From Candidatus Bathyarchaeota archaeon (GTDB lineage: Archaea; Thermoproteota; Bathyarchaeia; Bathyarchaeales; Bathycorpusculaceae), in contig CAVRFW010000009.1 in NCBI GenBank assembly GCA_963720565.1, positions 352,001 to 416,000 on the forward strand: a stretch of DNA of 64,000 nt. Reading direction: 5' to 3'. Within the stretch, counting starts at the first letter, position 1, and each line of letters opens with the position of its first letter. Below the pieces are notes generated by a model. The model was not told where the DNA came from. It did no database searches and saw only the letters and a program-made list of their open reading frames with translations. The position numbers and the translations under genes were made by a program. Positions 14,335 to 36,850 of this stretch are shown piece by piece.

Positions 14335-15039
14335 GTGATTGCATTGAGTAGAACTTCGCAGACAATTTGTCAGGCTAGACTTGAAGGTCGGAAAGCCTTG
14401 CTGGAACCAGAAGCTAACAACATCTGCATGGAATACGGTATTCCCGTTGCCGCATTTAAGCTCGCCAAAAACGAAGACGAAGCAGTCAAATCAGCGGAAC
14501 AGTTGGGTTATCCCGTGGTTTTGAAGATTGTATCTCCTGACATACTTCACAAGTCAGACGTTGGTGGCGTTATCGTTAATCTGAGAAGCATTGCTGAAGT
14601 CAGGAGTGCTTACGCCAAGATCTTAGAAAACGCCAAGAAATACAATCCTGCAGTCCAAGTCACCGGTGTTTTGGTGCAAGAGATGGCTCCCAAGTCGACC
14701 GAGGTAATAGTGGGCGCAATAAAAGACTCTCAGTTTGGACAAACCCTGATGTTTGGGCTGGGAGGAATCTTCGTTGAACTCTTGAAAGATGTCACCCTAA
14801 AAATAGCTCCCATAACGGAGGCTGAAGCCGTGGAAATGATAACTGGAGTGAAAGCCTACCCCATTCTGAAAGGCTACCGGAACACGTTACCAGTTGATGT
14901 TGATGCCATAAAGGCGATTCTGCTTAGCACTTCGAGACTTGTTATGGAGAACCCGGAAATCAAGGAACTAGACTTGAACCCGGTCATGGTTTACGAGAAA
15001 GGCGCGAAAGCTGTAGACGCGCGAATCATACTGGAATAA
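14335..15039 (+). CDS. acdB: ADP-forming acetate/acyl-CoA ligase beta subunit (ATP-grasp)
   Basis: GYPVVLKIVSPDILHKSDVGGV, MFGLGGIFVE, ELDLNP, AVDARI. Confidence 0.9.
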   Translation: MIALSRTSQTICQARLEGRKALLEPEANNICMEYGIPVAAFKLAKNEDEAVKSAEQLGYPVVLKIVSPDILHKSDVGGVIVNLRSIAEVRSAYAKILENAKKYNPAVQVTGVLVQEMAPKSTEVIVGAIKDSQFGQTLMFGLGGIFVELLKDVTLKIAPITEAEAVEMITGVKAYPILKGYRNTLPVDVDAIKAILLSTSRLVMENPEIKELDLNPVMVYEKGAKAVDARIILE

Positions 15040-15140
15040 ACAACGCAATAGCCTGTAAAATATGCCTCCTCATGGGACAAAAGCAGAAGCACAGCGTTAA
15101 AATTATATCTTAATGTATTTACTATTCAAGTCTCTGTTGA

Positions 15141-15215
15141 GGGTCCGTGGCGCAGTACGGATAGCGCGTCAGCCTTCTAAGCTGAAAGTCATGGGTTCAA
15201 ATCCCATCGGACCCG
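15141..15215 (+). tRNA. tRNA-Arg(TCT), no intron, CCA not encoded
   Basis: Acceptor stem GGGTCCG/CGGACCC; anticodon arm TCAGC-CTTCTAA-GCTGA; T arm ATGGG-TTCAAAT-CCCAT. Confidence 0.96.
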
Positions 15216-15217
15216 CT

Positions 15218-15478
15218 TCAAATCTCAAATTCTGACTTGAATTGGGGAGTTTCTGGGTCAATAACTTTGCTTGTAGATGATTGACCTTGGTCAAGCTTGC
15301 TTAATTCCCCAAGTTTCTCCTTGACATATTCAATTGATTGTTTGTGGTAGTGGAATCCTTGTTTGTTCTTGTGTCTGGCTCTAGCGTAGCCTACGCTTCC
15401 ATCTTTACGGTAGAAAACTTGGATTGAACTGGGTTCTCCACATTCTGAGCATTCAAACCTGTAACATTTGATTTTCAA
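15218..15478 (-). mobile_element. Small CxxC ORF reading into the tRNA antisense strand; probable N-terminal fragment of a split (SSV-type) integrase
   Basis: Abuts the tRNA 3' end. A nearby frame continues FEAGPMGFEPMTFSLEG through the tRNA antisense, the geometry expected for att-split int genes. Confidence 0.55.
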
Positions 15479-15498
15479 TCTTTACAACTCCAAATATT

Positions 15499-15541
15499 TG
15501 GTTCCCTGGAGTGGTCAATTCTGCTTATAAGGACCATTAAA
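15499..15541. repeat. 43-bp repeat, copy 1 (upstream region of the int(N)-like ORF)
   Basis: TGGTTCCCTGGAGTGGTCAATTCTGCTTATAAGGACCATTAAA; 41/43 identical to 35106-35148. Confidence 0.9.
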
Positions 15542-15608
15542 GAACAATTTTGGAGCCTAAATGAGCTGAAGCTAAACCTAATTAGATGCTTCCAATGAAT
15601 AGGAAATT

Positions 15609-15914
15609 ATGCACAAGATGGTCCAGTATGCAATAACAGTTAACATCATATTGGCTTTGGCATTTGTTTATGGTAACTTTTCACTCTGGAGTTTTGTAAA
15701 TGCTGAGTACCCACTTCTGATTGCTAGCCATTGGAGTCCATTCCTAATTACTGCTCCACATTATTATTATAGTAACGGCGACCTTTCAATAGCTACAACA
15801 CTCTTCTTGGCATTCAATACACCATTTTGGATTTTCTGGATTATGTTAGCAGTAAACTTGGGCTTTATCATCTTGCTTGGAAGAAACAAAGAGGCAAAAC
15901 AAAACACAACATAG
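15609..15914 (+). CDS. Small two-TM membrane protein, cassette family A
   Basis: VN..L...F....LW...WSP.....N.PF..F......NL.FI..LGRNKEAKQNTT. Confidence 0.75.
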   Translation: MHKMVQYAITVNIILALAFVYGNFSLWSFVNAEYPLLIASHWSPFLITAPHYYYSNGDLSIATTLFLAFNTPFWIFWIMLAVNLGFIILLGRNKEAKQNTT

Positions 15915-16200
15915 AGTGCATCATTTTTTAGTGCGATCTAAAACAGTTTGACTGGTTGGGAAAAATGTGCGAATCTATGGTTACGTTAAGAGAACTTGTG
16001 AAGCTTCTTTATTGCATTCTCCAACCAACCCCAAGGGTTGCCTTCTAACCAAATCGGACTCTTGGGTTCTTCTGTCTGTTTGAAGAACTCTTTTAATCGC
16101 TTGACAAGTTTGTCAAGCCAAAGCCACGGATTGTCAAACCATGTACTTCAGGCATTTTCTCATCAACTAAAGCATATAACTCATGCCATACTCTTTTTGG

Positions 16201-16222
16201 TGCGTAGAGAAAACTTTACGGA
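16201..16222. repeat. Cassette site S1
   Basis: TGCGTAGAG-AAAA-CTTTACGGA, preceded by T-tract and GG. Confidence 0.9.
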
Positions 16223-16257
16223 AAATCTTAAAAGCCAATAGCCTTAAAGTTGTAGCC

Positions 16258-16517
16258 ATGTCAAAGCAATTGATGTTGATGGTTTTGTTTAATGCGTTGA
16301 TATGTCTGCTCTATGTGTTTTTCCATGTTTACCTTTCTACACAATCTAGCTATGTAGCGATGGAGGCTTTTTGCTTGGATGCACATGGAGCTGACCCAGC
16401 CTTTTGGACCACGCATTCGGAACTACTTTACTTGGCTATTCGTATTATCAACTTTGGCAAACCTGTACTTCATCATCAAGCTGGGAAGAGGCAGAGAGTG
16501 CAAAACAAAGCGCATAG
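16258..16517 (+). pseudogene. Family A membrane protein, frameshifted
   Basis: MSKQLMLMVLFNALICLLYVF, then NYFTWLFVLSTLANLYFIIKLGR in another frame. Confidence 0.65.
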
Positions 16518-16537
16518 AGTTCCTTATTCTTTTTTGT

Positions 16538-16559
16538 TGCGTAAAGAAAACTTTACTGA
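16538..16559. repeat. Cassette site S2
   Basis: TGCGTAAAG-AAAA-CTTTACTGA (perfect GTAAAG/CTTTAC dyad). Confidence 0.9.
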
Positions 16560-16596
16560 AAATCTTAAATCTGCAAAAAGTAGAAATAATCTAAAC

Positions 16597-16793
16597 ATGG
16601 GCTATAAGGGCTTACTGAGTTTTGCGTTGGTGGAGTCTTCCTTAACATTGCACTAAATATCATGTTATCTAGTTTTTTGGAAATGATGTTGCATTGATGG
16701 CTGTTCTGGTATGGTGTGCAGCATTGAGTTTTGTTGGTTTTCTGTTGTTGGGCTATGGACTAAATCAGAGAGGCAAAACAAAACACAACATAG
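16597..16793 (+). pseudogene. Small hydrophobic ORF, frameshifted, ending in the shared EAKQNTT* tail
   Basis: MGYKGLLSFALV start; 3' end AGAGGCAAAACAAAACACAACATAGAGTG identical to the end of the 15609-15914 gene. Confidence 0.5.
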
Positions 16794-16806
16794 AGTGTAC
16801 AGTTCA

Positions 16807-16828
16807 CTGGTAGAGAAAACTTTGCACA
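16807..16828. repeat. Cassette site S3
   Basis: CTGGTAGAG-AAAA-CTTTGCACA. Confidence 0.8.
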
Positions 16829-16871
16829 AAAACTAAATCTCAAAACATCTTCTATTACTCTGGGTGAGTAC

Positions 16872-17274
16872 ATGTCTAAGTGGCATGTGTTTGTTGCAAT
16901 AGTGTTAGTTTTCAATGTGTTAGCGGGAGTAGGTTTTGTTTTGCAAACAATATGTTGTGGGACTACCTGAATAAGCAAATTAATGAAGTAGGAGGTAACA
17001 AAGGGGAAGGTAATTTTGTGATACCGTTCATTTTGGATTCTGGTCTTCATGTGACTGTGGGTCATGAGTTTTGGTTTGAGAATGGGACTCTTGTTAACCT
17101 TGGACCTCTTCCAATAGGAGTTCCTAATTATTCCTTTCATTGTTTTCTGGGTTTACGCGGTGGGTAACTTGGGTTTCATAGCGTGTGCACGAGTTTTCAT
17201 GAAACAGGATTGAGCAGATTGCTAAGAAGAATGGAGACAGGATTGAGCAGATTGCTAAAAAGAATGGAGAATAG
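16872..17274 (+). pseudogene. Family A-like membrane protein, frameshifted, with C-terminal 11-aa duplication
   Basis: MSKWHVFVAIVLVFNVLAGVGF / NNMLWDYL / PNY / GNLGFI in shifting frames. Confidence 0.55.
17204..17269. repeat. 33-bp tandem duplication (2 copies, 1 mismatch)
   Basis: ACAGGATTGAGCAGATTGCTAA(G/A)AAGAATGGAG x2. Confidence 0.9.
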
Positions 17275-17313
17275 AACAGCGAAATAGAGAAACATCATAA
17301 TTCAAGCTTTTGG

Positions 17314-17335
17314 TGCGTAGAGAAAACTTTACTGT
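17314..17335. repeat. Cassette site S4, start of a ~90-bp block similar to 19276-19365
   Basis: TGCGTAGAG-AAAA-CTTTACTGT followed by GTATTCATAAAAA. Confidence 0.9.
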
Positions 17336-17403
17336 GTATTCATAAAAACCAAATATCCACAAATTTAACAGTTGAATGCTTAAGCCCTGCAGGAAGTCTA
17401 GCG

Positions 17404-17742
17404 TTGAAACATCCTAAACTTGTTTATGGAATCGTTGCAGTTTTGGGATTGTTCCTTCTGATTACACTTTTTTCTGTGGCTTTTCGGAATTCAATCAATT
17501 ATGGTTCAGGAGAGAATGTAATACTACCTCTTGATTTTATCTGGTTTTCGTTAATAGGTGGAACAATTTTCTTTACAGTTGGAACTTGCGGAGTTGGAAG
17601 GCAATACCTTAGGAACAGTCAAAACCCATTTACACGCAGGTCCGCAGACTCATATACGGTGCTTGCTGCAATTCTAATTCTGTCAATTGTATCTGTCCTG
17701 TTTCTGTATTTTTGGATGGGCAGCCTAACAGTTGGATTCTAA
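17404..17742 (+). CDS. Small three-TM membrane protein, cassette family B
   Basis: MKHPKLV.G.VAVLG..LL.T.F...G..GVGRQY. Confidence 0.75.
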   Translation: MKHPKLVYGIVAVLGLFLLITLFSVAFRNSINYGSGENVILPLDFIWFSLIGGTIFFTVGTCGVGRQYLRNSQNPFTRRSADSYTVLAAILILSIVSVLFLYFWMGSLTVGF

Positions 17743-17762
17743 AATCACTATGGAGCTAAACG

Positions 17763-18077
17763 ATGAAACATCCCAAGCTTGTTAATGGTTTTGTTGCAGT
17801 TTTGGGAATTGTTCTTCTAACAATATTCTTTCTCATTCTAAGAACTCTGTTTGGAGTTCCTTTTGGGATGTTTGAACTTTGGGTTTTTAGCTCACTGTTG
17901 GTATGTTTTGTCATTAATGGAATAATTGGCACAGCTGGAATACTTGGAGTTGGAAGGCGATATTTCAAAGATAATCAGAAGTTTGTGCCTGCTGTCCTTT
18001 TGATTCAATCATCATTGACCATAATCTTGTTATATATGTCGCTGGTACTCCCTCTTTCCAGAGTATATCTCCTCTAA
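17763..18077 (+). CDS. Small three-TM membrane protein, family B tandem paralog
   Basis: MKHPKLVNGFVAVLGIVLLTIFF...GILGVGRRYF. Confidence 0.75.
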   Translation: MKHPKLVNGFVAVLGIVLLTIFFLILRTLFGVPFGMFELWVFSSLLVCFVINGIIGTAGILGVGRRYFKDNQKFVPAVLLIQSSLTIILLYMSLVLPLSRVYLL

Positions 18078-18131
18078 AAGGAAATCCATACACCATATTC
18101 AATTGTTGAAAAATCAATATGGGATAATGCG

Positions 18132-18611
18132 TTATTCTTTTTTGGTGCGTAGAGGAAACTTTGCTTTGTATAAAATCAAGATTCCACAAGCTATGGTGAC
18201 AAGTCCAGATGCTAGAAATTCTATTTGAACTAGAACAAAGTACATTATTAAGAGATTGATAGTGGGAAGAAGCAAAATGCAGCCTAATACCTGAAATCCT
18301 ACGCCCATCGCGTTGCTGGGTTGCTGTGATGTTATTGAACCGTATGTCAGCATTACTATTCCGCATGTTAGAGCAAAAAGTCCTAGTATTGCGTACGGAA
18401 AGACAACAAGGATAAAGTCTGGATAATAAATAAATCCAGAAACAACTATTTGGGAAAGTCCAGTGATGCCCCAGAACAAGGCTACTTTTCGATAGTGTGC
18501 TGGGTATCCTAGCAAGGCAACTATTCCTGCTATGATGAATGCTCCCATTAGCCATGTATAATACTGTACATAATCCCACATTGGAGGAATTGGGACAGGT
18601 GAAAATGACAT
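18132..18611 (-). CDS. Multi-TM hypothetical membrane protein, oriented opposite to the array
   Basis: Several hydrophobic helices; last codons (KFPLRTKKE*) are encoded by site S5 and its flank. Confidence 0.7.
   Translation of the reverse strand: MSFSPVPIPPMWDYVQYYTWLMGAFIIAGIVALLGYPAHYRKVALFWGITGLSQIVVSGFIYYPDFILVVFPYAILGLFALTCGIVMLTYGSITSQQPSNAMGVGFQVLGCILLLPTINLLIMYFVLVQIEFLASGLVTIACGILILYKAKFPLRTKKE
18146..18167. repeat. Cassette site S5
   Basis: TGCGTAGAG-GAAA-CTTTGCTTT. Confidence 0.85.
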
Positions 18612-18685
18612 GCTAATTGCAACTGCTCTTAGTGTTTGTTTTCTATGTGTCTTCTTATTATGATAGTTTTGCTTAAGAAATTTGG

Positions 18686-18707
18686 TGTGTAGAGATAACT
18701 TTTCAGA
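18686..18707. repeat. Cassette site S6
   Basis: TGTGTAGAG-ATAA-CTTTTCAGA. Confidence 0.8.
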
Positions 18708-18751
18708 AAAATTAAATCCCAAATGCTCTTCTATTGTATCAGGGTGGGTCC

Positions 18752-19066
18752 GTGTTTAAACAGCTGAAACTTGTTATTTTGGTTAATGTTGTGTTGGGTT
18801 TGCTTTTTGTTATTTCTGACTATTTTTTATGGAGTTTTATTCGTTGGGAGAGCTGGAGTTACAATGGTGCAGTGCCAAGTTGGTCTCCTCTATTCATAAC
18901 ACCTACTTACCAGCCACCAATTGAGCCAAGACCTTACATTTTAGCACCTACTCCAGTGCCACATCTGAATATTCCTTTTCTACTGTTCTTGGCAATGTTT
19001 GTAACAAACATGTACTTCATGGTTAAGCTTGGAAGAAACAAAGAGGCAAAACAAAACATAACCTAG
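18752..19066 (+). CDS. Family A small membrane protein
   Basis: VN..LGLLF....LWSFI...WSPLFIT...NIPFLLF...NMYFMVKLGRNKEAKQNIT. Confidence 0.75.
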   Translation: MFKQLKLVILVNVVLGLLFVISDYFLWSFIRWESWSYNGAVPSWSPLFITPTYQPPIEPRPYILAPTPVPHLNIPFLLFLAMFVTNMYFMVKLGRNKEAKQNIT

Positions 19067-19079
19067 AGTGTGATTGGAA

Positions 19080-19226
19080 ATGAGCGATTCTAAACCAGTA
19101 AGATGCCAAAAATGTGGAAGACCTGTGGGCTACATTACTGTGTTAGTTAAAGGTCTGATGGGCTTGCAGCAGCCTATACATGATTTAAAAATTTTAGCAG
19201 TTTGCATGGACTGTTCAAAAAAGTGA
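19080..19226 (+). CDS. 48-aa zinc-finger microprotein (not in the ORF track)
   Basis: MSDSKPVRCQKCGRPVGYITV...LAVCMDCSKK*, two CxxC motifs. Confidence 0.65.
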   Translation: MSDSKPVRCQKCGRPVGYITVLVKGLMGLQQPIHDLKILAVCMDCSKK

Positions 19227-19281
19227 GTGGCTCAAGCTTTCAACACAGAGCTAGCTTTCAGAAACACAAATGAAGTTTTGG

Positions 19282-19303
19282 TGCGTAGAGAAAACTTTAC
19301 TGT
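19282..19303. repeat. Cassette site S7
   Basis: TGCGTAGAG-AAAA-CTTTACTGT. Confidence 0.9.
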
Positions 19304-19441
19304 GTATTCATAAAAATCAAATATTCACAACTTTAGCCAATTGACTGCTTAAGCCTCGCAGGAAAATCGTTAAACATTTAGTGTCTGTTTGAGGTATTGG
19401 GAATTAGGAGGCAGTCTCAAAGATAATCGAGGACTATTTAC

Positions 19442-19852
19442 ATGTACTGTTCTCATAATTCCATTTTGCATCTTTGCTTATTTCATGGCAATATGGTGGG
19501 TGGTCTAACCATTGCAAAAATCAGGAAAAAGAGAAATGGATTCATGGCAGTCTTGGGAATTGTTTTTCTAATCTTTGTTGCTCTGCCTTGGAGTCTTGCT
19601 GATTGGTTTGACCTATTGGCATTTGTGCACTCCAAACAGCTTCTTGAGGATGTTTCTAGTGGTATTCGCACATTCTTGTTCTTCTTTGGCGGAATACTTT
19701 TTCTAGCTCTTGGAATATTTGGAATTGGAAAGCAATATTTCTTCAAAAACATGTCTAAAAGGTTGTTTTGGTTTCATGTTGTTTTAGTTTTATTGCTCAT
19801 CTTTAGCTTGTTTTTTTATTTTTGGAGTAAAGCACTATCCATTGGATGCTAA
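19442..19852 (+). CDS. Family B membrane protein fused to the decayed remnant of an upstream family B paralog; true start probably near 19512
   Basis: NGFMAVLGIVFL...GIFGIGKQYF...FFYFWSKALSIG; upstream MVGGLTI resembles WMGSLTV of the 17404 gene. Confidence 0.65.
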   Translation: MYCSHNSILHLCLFHGNMVGGLTIAKIRKKRNGFMAVLGIVFLIFVALPWSLADWFDLLAFVHSKQLLEDVSSGIRTFLFFFGGILFLALGIFGIGKQYFFKNMSKRLFWFHVVLVLLLIFSLFFYFWSKALSIGC

Positions 19853-19889
19853 AGCGCGCGCGGTTTCTGCATTTGGTTGTGTGTGCTTC

Positions 19890-20120
19890 TTAGGGTACAA
19901 CCAGCACGGTTTGAGTTGCACGTATGTTTGTGATTGTTCTTATTTTGTAAGTAATGATGTGTTTGAGTCTATCCATTGTTTCTGTTTTCACCTTTGCAAC
20001 AATATCATAAACTCCGTACACCATTCCAGCTTCTTCCACGCCCTCTATTGCTTTTACTTTTTTAAGAACCTCTGGCATCGCTGCTGGTTCAGTGTTTATG
20101 AAAACGAAGGCCGTTGGCAA
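19890..20120 (-). CDS. Stand-alone Lrp/AsnC ligand-binding (RAM) domain protein
   Basis: AFVFINTE.....V...VK.I.GV.EA.MVYGVYDIVAKV. Confidence 0.85.
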   Translation of the reverse strand: MPTAFVFINTEPAAMPEVLKKVKAIEGVEEAGMVYGVYDIVAKVKTETMDRLKHIITYKIRTITNIRATQTVLVVP

Positions 20121-20315
20121 AAAAATCTCCTCGAAATTATAACTATGTACGTTCTGGTATTTTTCAGTGTCGCTTGTTGGGGAATTTGGTTATTGGCTTT
20201 CGATTCGCGTGGTATAATGATTGCGTAAAATTCGAGAAAGAAAATCGGCATCGTTAATTCGCATTAAATCCTTTTATTTTGTAGAGCTGAAGTAAATTGC
20301 AGCGTGAAGACTTAG

Positions 20316-21602
20316 TTGTCAGGGGAAACAGAAACGGATACTCAAACGAAGCTGCGCCGGTCGCTTGGATTGTTTGATGCCTTTTCCATCGGCATAAATG
20401 CAATAGTCGGCGCGGGCATATTCGTCGTTATAGGAATAGCAGCTGGAGCTGCTGGACCAGCCCTCATAGTATCAGTAGCAATCGGGTTCTTCATTTCGGC
20501 TCTCACCGCCACGAGCTTCATCCAACTCAGCAAGAAGATTCCCAGAGAAGGCGGCGCGTACGCTTTCACACATGAACTGATGCCAGCTCCCATAGGGTTT
20601 ATTTCAGGCTGGTTATGGGTATTCTCAAACACGATAGCCGGCGCTGCAGTCGCGATAAGTTTCGCACAGTACCTTTCATTTCTAATCCCAGCGTTTGACC
20701 CGCGAATCTACGCGGTAATAGTGTCGATATTGTTCACCATCGTAAATTACTACAGCGCGAAAGCATCAGCCCTCATGGGTAACGCTATCAACGTTCTCAA
20801 GCTTGGAATACTCTTCTTCTTCGTGGTTCTCGGAATTTTCTTTTTCCGAATGGACAATTTCTTACCGTTTGCTCCCAACGGAGCCATCGGCGTGCTTGGC
20901 GGTACGTCGCTCATTTTTTTTGCGTTCACCGGGTTTGCCAGAATCACCACGGTTTCCGAGGAGGTAGTGGACCCTGAAAAAACAGTTCCTCGTGCAACCT
21001 TCTTGTCCTTGGTGGTTTCAGCAATTATCTATCTGCTCGTGGTGTTTGTCGCGATTGGTCTTGTCGGGGCACCCGCTATTGGGAGCTCTGGATCTCCGTT
21101 AGCAGACGCTATTGCGGTGACTGGATTACCCGTTGCAGTCTTCATCATAACGATTGGGGCGCTCGTCGCCACCTCGGGCGTATTGTTGACTTCAGTTCTA
21201 GGTGTCTCAAGAGTGATGTATGCAATGGCAAAGAACGGAGATTTACCCTCATTTCTTGGAAAAATCCACCCGAAAAGAGGCGTCCCCTACTACGCCATCA
21301 TAGTCTCGGGAGTCTTAATGACACTGTTGGCAGCTTCGAATGACCTTGCGCTCGTCGTGAATGTTAGCAACGTGAGCTCTCTGCTCTACTATGCTTTGTC
21401 AAATGCAAGCGCCACAAAACTAAAAATTAGCCACAGAATGACCGTCATATCGATTATGGGTGTCGTTTCGTGTTTAGTTCTGCTGTTTTTCCTGACACTT
21501 CAATCGCTAATCTTGACTTCTGTAATTGTAGCCTTAGGCATTGGGTACTACATGACAAGACGTGTCTGTTCACGTGAAGGCAACATTAAGCAACATTACT
21601 AA
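20316..21602 (+). CDS. APC-family amino acid permease
   Basis: LRRSLGL...GINAIVGAGIF, EGGAY, FFAFTGF...SEEV.DP, SRVMYAMAK.G.LP. Confidence 0.9.
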   Translation: MSGETETDTQTKLRRSLGLFDAFSIGINAIVGAGIFVVIGIAAGAAGPALIVSVAIGFFISALTATSFIQLSKKIPREGGAYAFTHELMPAPIGFISGWLWVFSNTIAGAAVAISFAQYLSFLIPAFDPRIYAVIVSILFTIVNYYSAKASALMGNAINVLKLGILFFFVVLGIFFFRMDNFLPFAPNGAIGVLGGTSLIFFAFTGFARITTVSEEVVDPEKTVPRATFLSLVVSAIIYLLVVFVAIGLVGAPAIGSSGSPLADAIAVTGLPVAVFIITIGALVATSGVLLTSVLGVSRVMYAMAKNGDLPSFLGKIHPKRGVPYYAIIVSGVLMTLLAASNDLALVVNVSNVSSLLYYALSNASATKLKISHRMTVISIMGVVSCLVLLFFLTLQSLILTSVIVALGIGYYMTRRVCSREGNIKQHY

Positions 21603-25667: not shown

Positions 25668-26117
25668 ATGAGTTCGGACGAAATGTTCGAAGCAGTCTCT
25701 CATCCACTCAGAATCGATATTGTGCAGAGGTTAGCAGAGAAGCCTTTAGGTTTTGCTGATCTCAAAAGAGAACTGAAGATTAGCAGTAGCGGCTTGCTGG
25801 ATTTCCATTTGAAGAAGCTGGACGAGTTAATAACCATAAACAAGGAAGGGCGATACTCCCTAACTGAAAAAGGGTTTGCGGCATTAACAACTATCGAGGG
25901 TGCAGCTGGATACTACAGGTTGCGTTCAGCCCAAAAGAGATCCTTCTTCCTTGGTTTAGCTGTTGTTGTACTGGTTAACATTGGTACGCTTTGGGTTGTG
26001 TTTGAGACTGAAAACTACGTGTTGTGGTACGCGGTGGTGTTGCCCATTACGTTGGCTTGGATTGTATTCTACAGTTACTGGACTCTTGTCAAAAGAAGAA
26101 TACGTCTCAAAACATAG
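25668..26117 (+). CDS. ArsR-type winged HTH with two C-terminal TM helices
   Basis: FEAVSHPLRIDI...L...GFADLKREL..SSGLL.FHLKKL...Y.LTEKG. Confidence 0.8.
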   Translation: MSSDEMFEAVSHPLRIDIVQRLAEKPLGFADLKRELKISSSGLLDFHLKKLDELITINKEGRYSLTEKGFAALTTIEGAAGYYRLRSAQKRSFFLGLAVVVLVNIGTLWVVFETENYVLWYAVVLPITLAWIVFYSYWTLVKRRIRLKT

Positions 26118-28345: not shown

Positions 28346-28380
28346 ACTTGGCGAAAAAAGCTAGATTTTGGCAGATTTGC

Positions 28381-28446
28381 TTAGTCAAGGAATCTTGACT
28401 GGATAAGGGGCGTGTTTAGTCAAGAAACCTTTACAAAAACCCCTTT
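28381..28446. repeat. Paired 22-bp dyad sites T1/T2, 35 bp apart
   Basis: TTAGTCAAG-GAAT-CTTGACTGG, 13 bp, TTAGTCAAG-AAAC-CTTTACAAA; 28414-28446 identical to 32656-32688. Confidence 0.9.
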
Positions 28447-35105: not shown

Positions 35106-35148
35106 TGGTTCCTTGGAGTGGTCAGTTCTGCTTATAAGGACCATTAAA
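35106..35148. repeat. 43-bp repeat, copy 2
   Basis: 41/43 identical to 15499-15541. Confidence 0.9.
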
Positions 35149-35208
35149 ACTAAATCAGGGAGCAGTCTAGAATGAGATGGATAACTTCAGAATCTGTGGG
35201 GACGTAAA

Positions 35209-35574
35209 ATGGAACCCAAGAAGTCGTTCAAAACTATAGATGAATACATCTTAAGTTTTCCAAAGAATGTGCAAAATATTTTGCAGGAACTGAGGCAAGT
35301 CATAAGAGAGACTGCACCTGAAGCTGAAGAGGCAATTAGCTATCAGATGCCTGCTTTCAGATTGAATGGCATCTTGGTGTATTTTGCAGCTTTTAAGAAT
35401 CATATTAGTTTTTTCCCTACTTCTTCAGCCATTGAGGAGTTCAAAGAGAAATTGTCTCCTTATGAAATAAGCAAGGGCACAGTTAGGTTTCCCATGAATG
35501 AGCCGATTCCATTTGACTTGATAAAGGAAATGTTGAGGTTTAGAGTTAAGGAAAACTTGAGTAAGAAGAAATAA
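35209..35574 (+). CDS. DUF1801/YdhG-like protein
   Basis: TIDEYI...L..LR..I...APEAEE.ISYQMPAF...YFAAFKNHI.F.P...SKGTVRFP. Confidence 0.88.
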   Translation: MEPKKSFKTIDEYILSFPKNVQNILQELRQVIRETAPEAEEAISYQMPAFRLNGILVYFAAFKNHISFFPTSSAIEEFKEKLSPYEISKGTVRFPMNEPIPFDLIKEMLRFRVKENLSKKK

Positions 35575-35609
35575 CGGAAGCACATGCAATAAAACATATT
35601 TCAATTTGG

Positions 35610-35631
35610 AGCATAGAGAAAACTTTGCTGC
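35610..35631. repeat. Cassette site S8
   Basis: AGCATAGAG-AAAA-CTTTGCTGC followed by GTATTCATAAA as in S4 and S7. Confidence 0.85.
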
Positions 35632-35674
35632 GTATTCATAAAGGAAGAATCTCAATAATCAGAATAGTGACAAA

Positions 35675-35878
35675 ATGAGTCCAATGGACTTCATGGTGTT
35701 TACTCTACTTGGACTGTTAGCACTAGTTGGAGCTAATGCAATACTTTGGTCAATAGCAAAAAAAGCAGAACATGCTGAGAAGAAAGAAACTCAGACCTTA
35801 ATCGTTAGCGTTATTGCCTATGCTATTTGCATGGCCTTTTTGGCTCTGTTCTATTCTTACGGCACTCCAATAGCATGA
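35675..35878 (+). CDS. Small two-TM protein (cassette)
   Basis: 67 aa, two hydrophobic helices, between S8 and S9. Confidence 0.65.
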   Translation: MSPMDFMVFTLLGLLALVGANAILWSIAKKAEHAEKKETQTLIVSVIAYAICMAFLALFYSYGTPIA

Positions 35879-35905
35879 CCAACTCTGTAATACTCTCTTT
35901 CTTGG

Positions 35906-35927
35906 TGCGTAGAGAAAACTTTGCAGA
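35906..35927. repeat. Cassette site S9
   Basis: TGCGTAGAG-AAAA-CTTTGCAGA. Confidence 0.9.
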
Positions 35928-35981
35928 ACAAACCTAAACTCTTTAATCTAAAAATACTATAATAACTAGTAGGGAATACAT

Positions 35982-36377
35982 TTGAAGAGGCTATTGTATT
36001 GGGTTCTCTTCATTGTTCTACTGCTTGTGCCTATTGTGATTAACTTTGTCTTTATAGTTGATATTCTTCTTTTCGCCCAGAGAGCCTTTGCATATTATAG
36101 GTATGTTACGCCAGATGTTCTTTTGAGGGATATTCTATTCGCAGAGGGAGCTGTGCTTCTTGTTTTTGGAGCTCTTGTTGGCGGAGTCACTCTGTATAAT
36201 GCTTGGGTTCCAACAGATGTTAGAAAGGCACAATTCACAGAGTATATTTGGAACTGGAAGAAGATAAGGGAAGAACGCAATTTTCCAACTGGATTGATGG
36301 TTGGATTGGCACTCATAGCTTTTGGAATTATCTATGTTTTGGTGGCAATATTCTTTCCAGGTTTTCCAGTGCAGTAG
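35982..36377 (+). CDS. Three-TM hypothetical protein (cassette)
   Basis: Hydrophobic 131-aa ORF between S9 and S10. Confidence 0.7.
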   Translation: MKRLLYWVLFIVLLLVPIVINFVFIVDILLFAQRAFAYYRYVTPDVLLRDILFAEGAVLLVFGALVGGVTLYNAWVPTDVRKAQFTEYIWNWKKIREERNFPTGLMVGLALIAFGIIYVLVAIFFPGFPVQ

Positions 36378-36394
36378 GAATCATTTGGTTTGTG

Positions 36395-36407
36395 AGCGTA
36401 GAGAAAA
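36395..36407. repeat. Half site S10
   Basis: AGCGTAGAG-AAAA with no right arm. Confidence 0.65.
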
Positions 36408-36461
36408 ATCTAAAATCAAAGGTAGACCAAATGTAACAAAAGACTCTACAAAGTGATAGTC

Positions 36462-36737
36462 ATGTCTAACAAGTTTAAATTAATGGTTTTGGTTAACATC
36501 TTGTTGGGTGTGTTTTTCGTTGCTCTCAATTTTTTGTGTAGCTCTCTTGCTACTGGTGACCATCGTGCTCTATGGAGTCCTCTATAGTTAACGTTTTACA
36601 ACATTTATGCTTTAGGAGACATTGGTGCTGCATTTCCTAACTTTGCTTTCTACTTCTTTTGGGTCTCAACAATAGTCAATCTATATTTCATAATCATGCT
36701 TGGAAGAAGCAAAGAGACAAAACATAACCCAACCTAA
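36462..36737 (+). pseudogene. Family A membrane protein with in-frame TAG at 36585-36587
   Basis: MSNKFKLMVLVNILLG...LWSPL*LTF...PNFAFYFFWVSTIVNLYFIIMLGRSKETKHNPT*. Confidence 0.8.
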
Positions 36738-36763
36738 AATGCGTTTATTCTTTTTGGTGCGTG
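36738..36763. repeat. Left flank and partial site S11
   Basis: AATGCGTTTATTCTTTTTGGTGCGTG, near-identical to 18126-18150. Confidence 0.75.
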
Positions 36764-36850
36764 GACACAACTCCCAAATATTTTTTTTGATTTGGATTTA
36801 GCGATAATGCTTTTACATTCAATAAGAATCATTATTAGCTAGGATCACAG

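Follow-up and report, generated by a model that had tools for sequence, protein, structure and literature searches.

For programmed shuffling of gene cassettes, integrons serve as the textbook case; short dyad sites also bound small gene modules in Xer/dif systems, such as the pdif modules of Acinetobacter. In the portions cited here, the preprint by Ghaly et al. on archaeal integrons (bioRxiv 10.1101/2022.02.06.479319) defines these by attC sites together with the integrase IntI. In SSV-type elements (SSV1/SSV2, pTN3, pT26-2) the attachment (att) site lies inside the integrase gene, the gene halves int(N) and int(C) stand at the element ends in a tRNA gene and the enzyme belongs to PF16795 (PMC8371274, PMC7253208 and PMC5495485, as excerpted); this split, 'suicidal' design is that of SSV-type integrases (PMC8371274). 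The cryptic elements of Thaumarchaeota are small and tRNA-linked, with the integrase as sole shared gene, and one has a split SSV1-like integrase; the passages cited (PMC6563490) describe no site-bounded cassette arrays, and their authors suggest that integron counterparts possibly await discovery. Here we describe a locus in a 64,000-nt stretch (the window) from the genome of a Candidatus Bathyarchaeota archaeon (contig CAVRFW010000009.1, positions 352,001 to 416,000; genome G000, 88.8% complete), in which half of such an integrase gene, next to tRNA-Arg, is followed by an array of small gene units separated by a repeated site. We found that these sites mark the borders of cassettes, that the cassettes are acquired, dropped and rearranged as whole units, and that the cassette layout recurs in several genera of the family.

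Like an integron, the locus has a site beside a tyrosine recombinase gene and, behind it, an array of sites in one orientation whose units mostly hold a single gene and change order; orphan arrays occur too. Unlike integrons as that preprint presents them, it has no attC ends or hairpin, its enzyme is an SSV-type integrase, usually split by tRNA integration, and not IntI, its leader and internal sites are the same motif, and its units, many of them in reverse orientation, seem to have promoters of their own. With the SSV-type elements named above it shares an integrase gene split at a tRNA and, in intact relatives of the integrase, the PF16795 domain; with the thaumarchaeal ones it shares small size, tRNA linkage and the integrase. 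Unlike SSV-type elements as described in the excerpts cited, the mapped elements showed no viral or replication genes, the N-terminal domain is a CxxC domain with weak likeness to PSV ORF131 only, and copies of one site divide the cargo into units. As in Xer/dif modules, short dyad sites bound small gene modules; unlike the dif layout given in PMC8371274, the point of exchange does not appear to be 11-6-11, all copies are direct repeats and the sites are tied to an element-borne integrase. The literature searched, which covered few subscription papers and included excerpts on Asgard elements, held no site-bounded cassette system of such kind. Two intact relatives of the integrase (L129 and L131) gave no match to the NCBIfam integron-integrase models at E<=1. 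With neither attC ends, hairpin nor an IntI match, we regard the system as integron-like in its working yet not an integron.

Seven copies of the site (S1-S7, Table 1) are spaced by 337, 269, 507, 832, 540 and 596 bp. An initial annotation of this DNA had reported seven same-orientation copies, at coordinates 2 nt inside the leading GG, with a spacing of 269-832 bp and with S5 in the 3' end of a convergent gene; all of this agrees with our measurements, and homologues of that convergent gene were found at three other loci. Six of the seven copies lie within 2 mismatches of the pattern, while S3 retains positions 6-21 only. Two further copies begin at 35608 and 35904, and degenerate ones at 15552 and 15930 lengthen the array. 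Altogether the window contained 8 matches (up to 3 mismatches) against 0.51 expected by chance, a number that none of 100 shuffles attained. The array stretch has a G+C content of 37-39%, compared with ~45% for the genome. The annotation was also right to set the sites apart from attC and CRISPR: at nine window sites no RYYYAAC...GTTRRRY pair spanned the site (within 60-80 nt only one site had both words, in a layout not spanning it), and the gene-containing intervals are not CRISPR-like, with no Rfam CRISPR family matched in 14500-20500.

We scanned G000 with a matrix built from the seven window copies, as the annotation had proposed. All 19 strong sites (23.7 bits or more; next best 18.9) fell within four island arrays and none preceded a core gene, so that the pattern which the annotation had named as refuting its reading was not observed. 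The arrays are this island, the 35.6-35.9 kb part of the window, contig C3 behind tRNA-Arg(CCT), and contig C5 in a decayed provirus at tRNA-Trp (C3, C5, C7, C9, C10, C12 and C13 denote contigs of G000). Each has a single site orientation and overlaps a low-G+C stretch. The strict window variant of the site is rare (2/61 relatives); a looser pattern was found in 11/401 class genomes, mostly as chance matches within genes, and a longer one in 15/301 family genomes. Viral contigs gave no matches to the site, and genome contigs gave three only, all from unrelated bacteria. A scan of metagenomes returned 21 contigs, 17 of which carry such arrays; the other four (L022, L027, L039, L041) were unrelated and were left out.

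Comparison with other genera showed that the full site is ~36 bp long and that the window repeat covers its right-hand 21 bp. The repeat reported by the annotation as a 22-bp dyad is real, but the dyad is only the right half of the full site. The conserved motif, built from 47 copies with the first G as position +1, extends from -16 to +19 and reads CATTAAAGAACA(A/G)TTTT GGAGCGT(CT/AG)AG AAAACTTT. In 306 kb of family loci it had 48 matches, against 1 after shuffling. Arms around a short spacer are the usual layout of tyrosine-recombinase sites, and one possible reading of the motif places an imperfect 13-bp arm on each side of an asymmetric 7-bp spacer. A second symmetry axis, at site position 6, fits about equally: in family sites it pairs 5.8/11 positions, against 2.9/6 for the axis first proposed, and in this lineage 4.7/11 against 3.1/6. 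The axis of the annotation fits this lineage about as well, but it leaves the conserved left arm unexplained. We detected no conserved hairpin or known RNA at the site (window fold z-scores -2.2 to +1.6).

To follow the units between loci, we used 17 metagenome contigs, four G000 loci and the genome of a sister species (G002), which together gave 92 site instances. Sixty-eight site-to-site units fell into 39 classes; 17 classes were multi-copy, and 11 of these stood between different neighbours. Units U1, U2, U7 and U9 each occur in different contexts at two loci of G000 itself. The junctions were of 71 distinct left/right types, in which 13 left classes had two or more different partners on the right and 11 right classes two or more on the left. 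The window has the order U7, S1 unit, U1 where C3 has U7, U1, an A-B-C versus A-C difference. The homology between U2 and its C5 copy begins exactly at 18144 (91% over 668 bp), and overall 152/486 homology-block starts fell within -30 to +25 of a site, against 6.3% expected; no inverted blocks were seen (0/544). The G002 locus has the same upstream genes with other cassettes, and leader sites precede differing first units. In the cassette-order comparison suggested in the annotation, neighbours of units differed between loci and between related genomes. Contigs from four public runs, aligned at 88% likeness and from related strains, had joints at or near sites (15554>16539, 16796>17308, 19264>16534); with shorter sides of 25-38 nt, these weakly support exchange at sites.

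We next considered where within the site the exchange falls. Per-position linkage switched from left to right near 0/+1, while some variants at +3 and +5 still went with the left flank; two large classes dominate this statistic. Identity turned from left-linked to right-linked across about positions 0 to +9. The annotated idea that cassettes are inserted and shuffled at the sites is partly supported: units keep their ends and change neighbours there, but the point of exchange is a zone, not a single base, and site-less junctions rearrange as well.

Table 1. Features of the array region and of the second array in the window.
Feature	Position	Strand	Basis and remarks
tRNA-Arg(TCT), integration target (attL)	15141..15216	+	ARAGORN
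int(N), assigned as N-terminal half of SSV-type split tyrosine integrase; CxxC, four strands and a helix	15218..15478	-	L129 alignment, structure model
Conserved leader with TATA-like box at 15524-15530	15500..15538	-	Present in leaders of related elements
Leader site, attI-like position	15539..15572	+	Left arm 13/13, right arm 4/9 (decayed)
Cassette gene, small membrane protein	15609..15914	+	ORF list; 3' tail common to paralogues
Degenerate site opening unit U7 (small gene on the reverse strand, its frame broken here)	15930..15950	+	U7 also at C3
S1; S1-S2 unit missing from C3 array	16199..16219	+	A-B-C versus A-C comparison
S2; start of unit U1	16536..16556	+	U1 in three contexts: window, C3, L035/L037
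S3, right part only; its gene has a site-preceded homologue in genus g66 (G531)	16805..16825	+	Homology by eye, N-termini
S4; unit with two paralogous membrane-protein genes, 17404-17742 and 17763-18077	17312..17332	+	ORF list
S5, between convergent genes; starts U2 (reverse-strand membrane-protein gene running over the site at its end)	18144..18164	+	Four contexts
S6; unit with two small genes, ~18754-19066 and ~19080-19226	18684..18704	+	ORF list, site match
S7; last unit, terminating at GCGCGCGC run 19854-19861	19280..19300	+	Site match
Second, orphan array: leader fragment without int(N); sites 35159, 35608, 35904, 36393, 36756	35106..36776	+	U9 shared with C5, U0 with metagenome contigs

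The array stands on a recognisable integrative platform. The initial annotation had named tRNA-Arg as the anchor, and tRNA-Arg(TCT) is indeed the target; it had overlooked that the small open reading frame (ORF) behind the tRNA is a split-integrase gene half. This 86-amino-acid ORF had no Pfam match, and aligned to the N-terminus of the intact 402-amino-acid integrase L129 (32% over 87 columns, E 2e-10). Its homologues continue in frame into various tRNAs. A word-index search for longer forms returned tRNA read-through only; a profile search gave fused forms, which pass via a tRNA-derived stretch into a tyrosine-recombinase core. On the PF16795 model, with a cut-off of 27 bits, L131 scored 39 bits and L129 25.9 bits, and the R...LR...QGR...Y catalytic motifs are kept in most of 26 frames. 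The integrase family was found in 155/301 family genomes, and intact members with catalytic motifs adjoin sites in two genomes (G332 and G522). In G002, the orthologous element at the same tRNA-Arg closes with an int(C) piece together with attR, which repeats the 3' half of the tRNA; int(C) is also present in G493 and G388. No attR for the window tRNA-Arg was found in G000. Judged from these alignments, the ORF is int(N) of a 'suicidal' split integrase element in tRNA-Arg.

Viral contigs held no relatives of the integrase. Fold searches with int(N) gave no clear match (best Z 4.5; the weak likeness was to PSV ORF131), and comparisons with Atlas and PHROGs gave nothing at 0.9 or above and nothing convincing, respectively. 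A PDB sequence search with the full integrase matched a designed repeat protein only and was discarded. Some intact integrases, L129 (G332:C56) and L131 (G531:C8), carry the tRNA-Arg 5' half in the sense direction, and the window int(N) faces the tRNA 3' end, so that one N-terminal domain serves both att geometries.

The site has a fixed position relative to this integrase. We surveyed 23 int(N) starts, at 12 loci retrieved by motif and 11 retrieved by protein, and found a site 66-93 nt upstream of 20, always facing away. Among the protein-retrieved loci 8/11 had a leader site, three of the 8 being in the training set. The window leader site scored 21.6 bits on the family matrix and lies 79 nt from the int start. 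The 15500..15538 leader beside it is probably the integrase promoter. Integrase leaders (15524-15541 in the window, and across the family) contain a TATAA/TTTAA-N6-TTAAA core, resembling both a dif-type layout and a TATA box. Non-leader sites were on the strand of the leader in 23/24 cases, the exception being the leader of a second element, and in G531 ten same-strand sites surround a nearly intact integrase. Where both flanks could be called, 8/53 junctions lay between convergent genes, and the sites there were intact (5/8 score 30 or more, median 34). Internal sites were slightly closer to their own leader than to other leaders (p=0.003, among kin that are not independent).

Our leading explanation, held at even odds, is that the element's own SSV-type integrase, acting in trans, catalyses the exchange of units at the site. 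The integrase is favoured by the fixed position of the site, by its strict direct orientation whichever way the genes face, by the intact sites between convergent genes, by a shared length of 21-36 bp that is short beside the ~100 bp reported in the case of IntpTN3 and its low-specificity recombination (PMC5495485), and by our finding no other suitable enzyme. In the mapped elements of G493 and G388, an inspection of ORF starts by eye, with no family scan, showed no other recombinase. In this model the island is an integrated SSV-type element that has split its own integrase gene and left int(N) behind tRNA-Arg; comparison of the locus with its orthologue shows this platform and indicates that int(C) and attR have been lost here. 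The ~36-bp site beside the integrase promoter faces away, and direct-orientation copies of it bound small gene units, which lie in either direction and presumably carry their own promoters. An intact copy arriving on a circle would provide the integrase in trans, or a tandem insertion would rebuild it; the enzyme would then cut out a unit flanked by two direct sites and place it at a further site. The comparisons show that units are lost, gained and reordered through exchange at pairs of sites, both within a locus and from one locus to another. Internal sites are probably the leader relics of stacked elements in which the intervening integrase gene has decayed, a step of which part can be traced. 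The outcome would be a changing set of small membrane and surface proteins. A wider proposal, that this is an independently evolved archaeal form of integron-like capture, we hold tentatively, at a little under an even chance: the SSV-type integrase would use the tRNA att for the platform and a second, unrelated double-stranded dyad site for the cassettes, and shuffling would be confined to times at which an intact copy comes in or is restored.

Several observations weigh against a role of the integrase in exchange. Neither catalysis, a cleavage point nor a circular cassette was observed in the assembled contigs compared, and G000, at its level of completeness, contains two int(N) halves and one distant, broken int(C) stub, with no intact copy. 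The site arms are unlike the tRNA att arms of the same integrase, and internal sites of this lineage mostly retain no more of the left arm than a T-tract (5-10/13). Spacer variants go with the left flank in some junctions and with the right flank in others, and unit U4 brings 18-33 bp of leader along. Neighbours also changed at junctions without a detected site (3/5 pairs, against 34/45 at sites, plus 13 mixed pairs); since site-less junctions rearrange too, this gene-level control does not single out the site. Unrelated genes have common 3' tails upstream of sites. As to the counts, the degenerate sites among the 92 instances were added by hand, and the set includes near-duplicate contigs (L028/L031, L035/L037, L038/L042).

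Some features of the sites suggest a different origin, in which the integrase and the first cargo gene have divergent promoters and the site between these is a box for a regulator, perhaps for Int(N) itself. Elements would stack at the tRNA and lose the integrase genes between them, leaving the boxes as relics; being the most frequent short repeat, the boxes would then be points of exchange through short homology, by host or low-specificity recombination, with no site-specific cleavage. We regard this as the strongest competitor, though a doubtful one. Leader-type sequence is kept upstream of 10/22 internal family sites, each of the four sites in G185 has an int(N) stub or a broken integrase behind it, and forward cassettes have a TATA-like run ~7-9 nt after the site, as does a second dyad family described below; these three observations count against the integrase as well. 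Variable crossovers and the rearrangement of site-less junctions fit recombination through homology, and homology-like recombination is catalysed by IntpTN3 according to the excerpt of PMC5495485; that excerpt, however, gives a homology of ~100 bp or more, against 21-36 bp in the sites. Activators that recruit TFB to weak promoters are likewise known (PMC5937170, in the part cited). By contrast, independent junctions after one left unit stop at the same T-tract, and sites are intact where neither neighbour has a promoter, though for some of them the reason could be overlap with coding sequence or a young age. The account of suicidal elements in Thermococcales (PMC7253208, in the part cited) also reports no tandem insertion. 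A role as operator or activator may coexist with a role as cassette border.

Exchange could also be truly site-specific and performed by another recombinase, such as an Xer-type enzyme of the host or a classical integrase supplied by a helper provirus, which we think unlikely. One array does lie in a decayed provirus with an intact 478-amino-acid tyrosine recombinase, the orphan array at 35.1-36.8 kb has no int(N), and the TATAA-N6-TTAAA core of the leaders recalls the 11-6-11 dif layout outlined in PMC8371274. The site, however, has its fixed position beside the gene of the SSV-type integrase, the GG site rather than the dif-like core is where exchange maps, and the 88.8% complete G000 had no full-length XerA above the cut-off. 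IS5/IS4, IS6, serine and Y1 enzymes were not found in G000, and its single IS110 is broken with no site beside it. The site as an insertion-sequence end was rejected on the same enzyme survey, together with the absence of an inverted partner site. The broken IS110 transposase lies outside the window, at G000:C9 332.2-333.8 kb (L182, L186), where it adjoins the broken int(C) stub. A plain regulon, with the site as an activator box before paralogous genes and no role in rearrangement, draws on the TATA spacing behind the site in forward genes and on the likeness to the second dyad family, but as sole explanation it is largely refuted and very improbable, with 19/19 strong sites in the four island arrays and none before a core gene, one orientation whichever way the genes face, and breakpoints clustering at the site.

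Within the cassettes, different genes end in a tail coding for REAKQ(N/S)TT (15853-15918, 16458-16518, 16763-16797, 19005-19070), and unrelated units finish in the relic of a surface-protein C-terminus, suggesting that new cassettes form through gene replacement between fixed ends. The gene of the S3 unit has a 33-bp direct duplication at its 3' end (17201-17266). Several window cassette ORFs are frame-broken; near-identical contigs show single-base differences at 16143, 16418, 16625 and 16672, so some of the breaks may be assembly errors. The orphan array has one unit, U9, in common with C5 and another, U0, in common with metagenome contigs. The C5 array belongs to a decayed provirus-like element at tRNA-Trp (~9.3-29.3 kb; L002, L005), which has the intact 478-amino-acid classical tyrosine recombinase and primase-like and tail-like ORFs; its attR was not found. 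Such an element is a possible vehicle for spreading the arrays.

The second dyad family, GTCAAG-N4-CTTGAC, is found in the window at 28379-28434, 32008 and 32656, and elsewhere in G000 on C7 (54-91 kb), C10, C12 and C13. It has 29 copies with at most 1 mismatch and is present in 8/61 relatives. Often paired ~35 bp apart, the copies lie ~9 nt before a TATA-like run ahead of surface-protein genes, and the motif looks like a transcription-factor operator. One unit sits behind this dyad in the window and behind a cassette site in L028. A membrane-anchored winged-helix (DUF7347/ArsR-like) regulator at 25668-26117 is a candidate for either dyad family, and a stand-alone Lrp/AsnC ligand-binding domain is encoded just past the array end (19890-20120), a similar gene being cargo in L129. 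Runs of GCGCGC mark the edges of islands and small modules (window 19854, 21610, 21760, 35100 and 40466; C5 16779; C9 331908 and 334429), with a modest enrichment genome-wide (468 against 360 expected).

Taken together, the cassette system is real and family-wide, and its platform is an integrative element of a known class; action of the integrase on the site would make the system categorically new. Described archaeal integrons, as excerpted, use IntI and attC, and the cassettes here move at another site, tied to another integrase lineage. The integrase and site make a defined enzyme-substrate pair, testable in vitro without culture of the host. Were the integrase the catalyst, this would be a second origin of the integron principle and a new activity of suicidal integrases, with possible use as a compact recombination tool. 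Even otherwise, the arrays account for the way in which these uncultured archaea build up and diversify their islands of small membrane and surface proteins.

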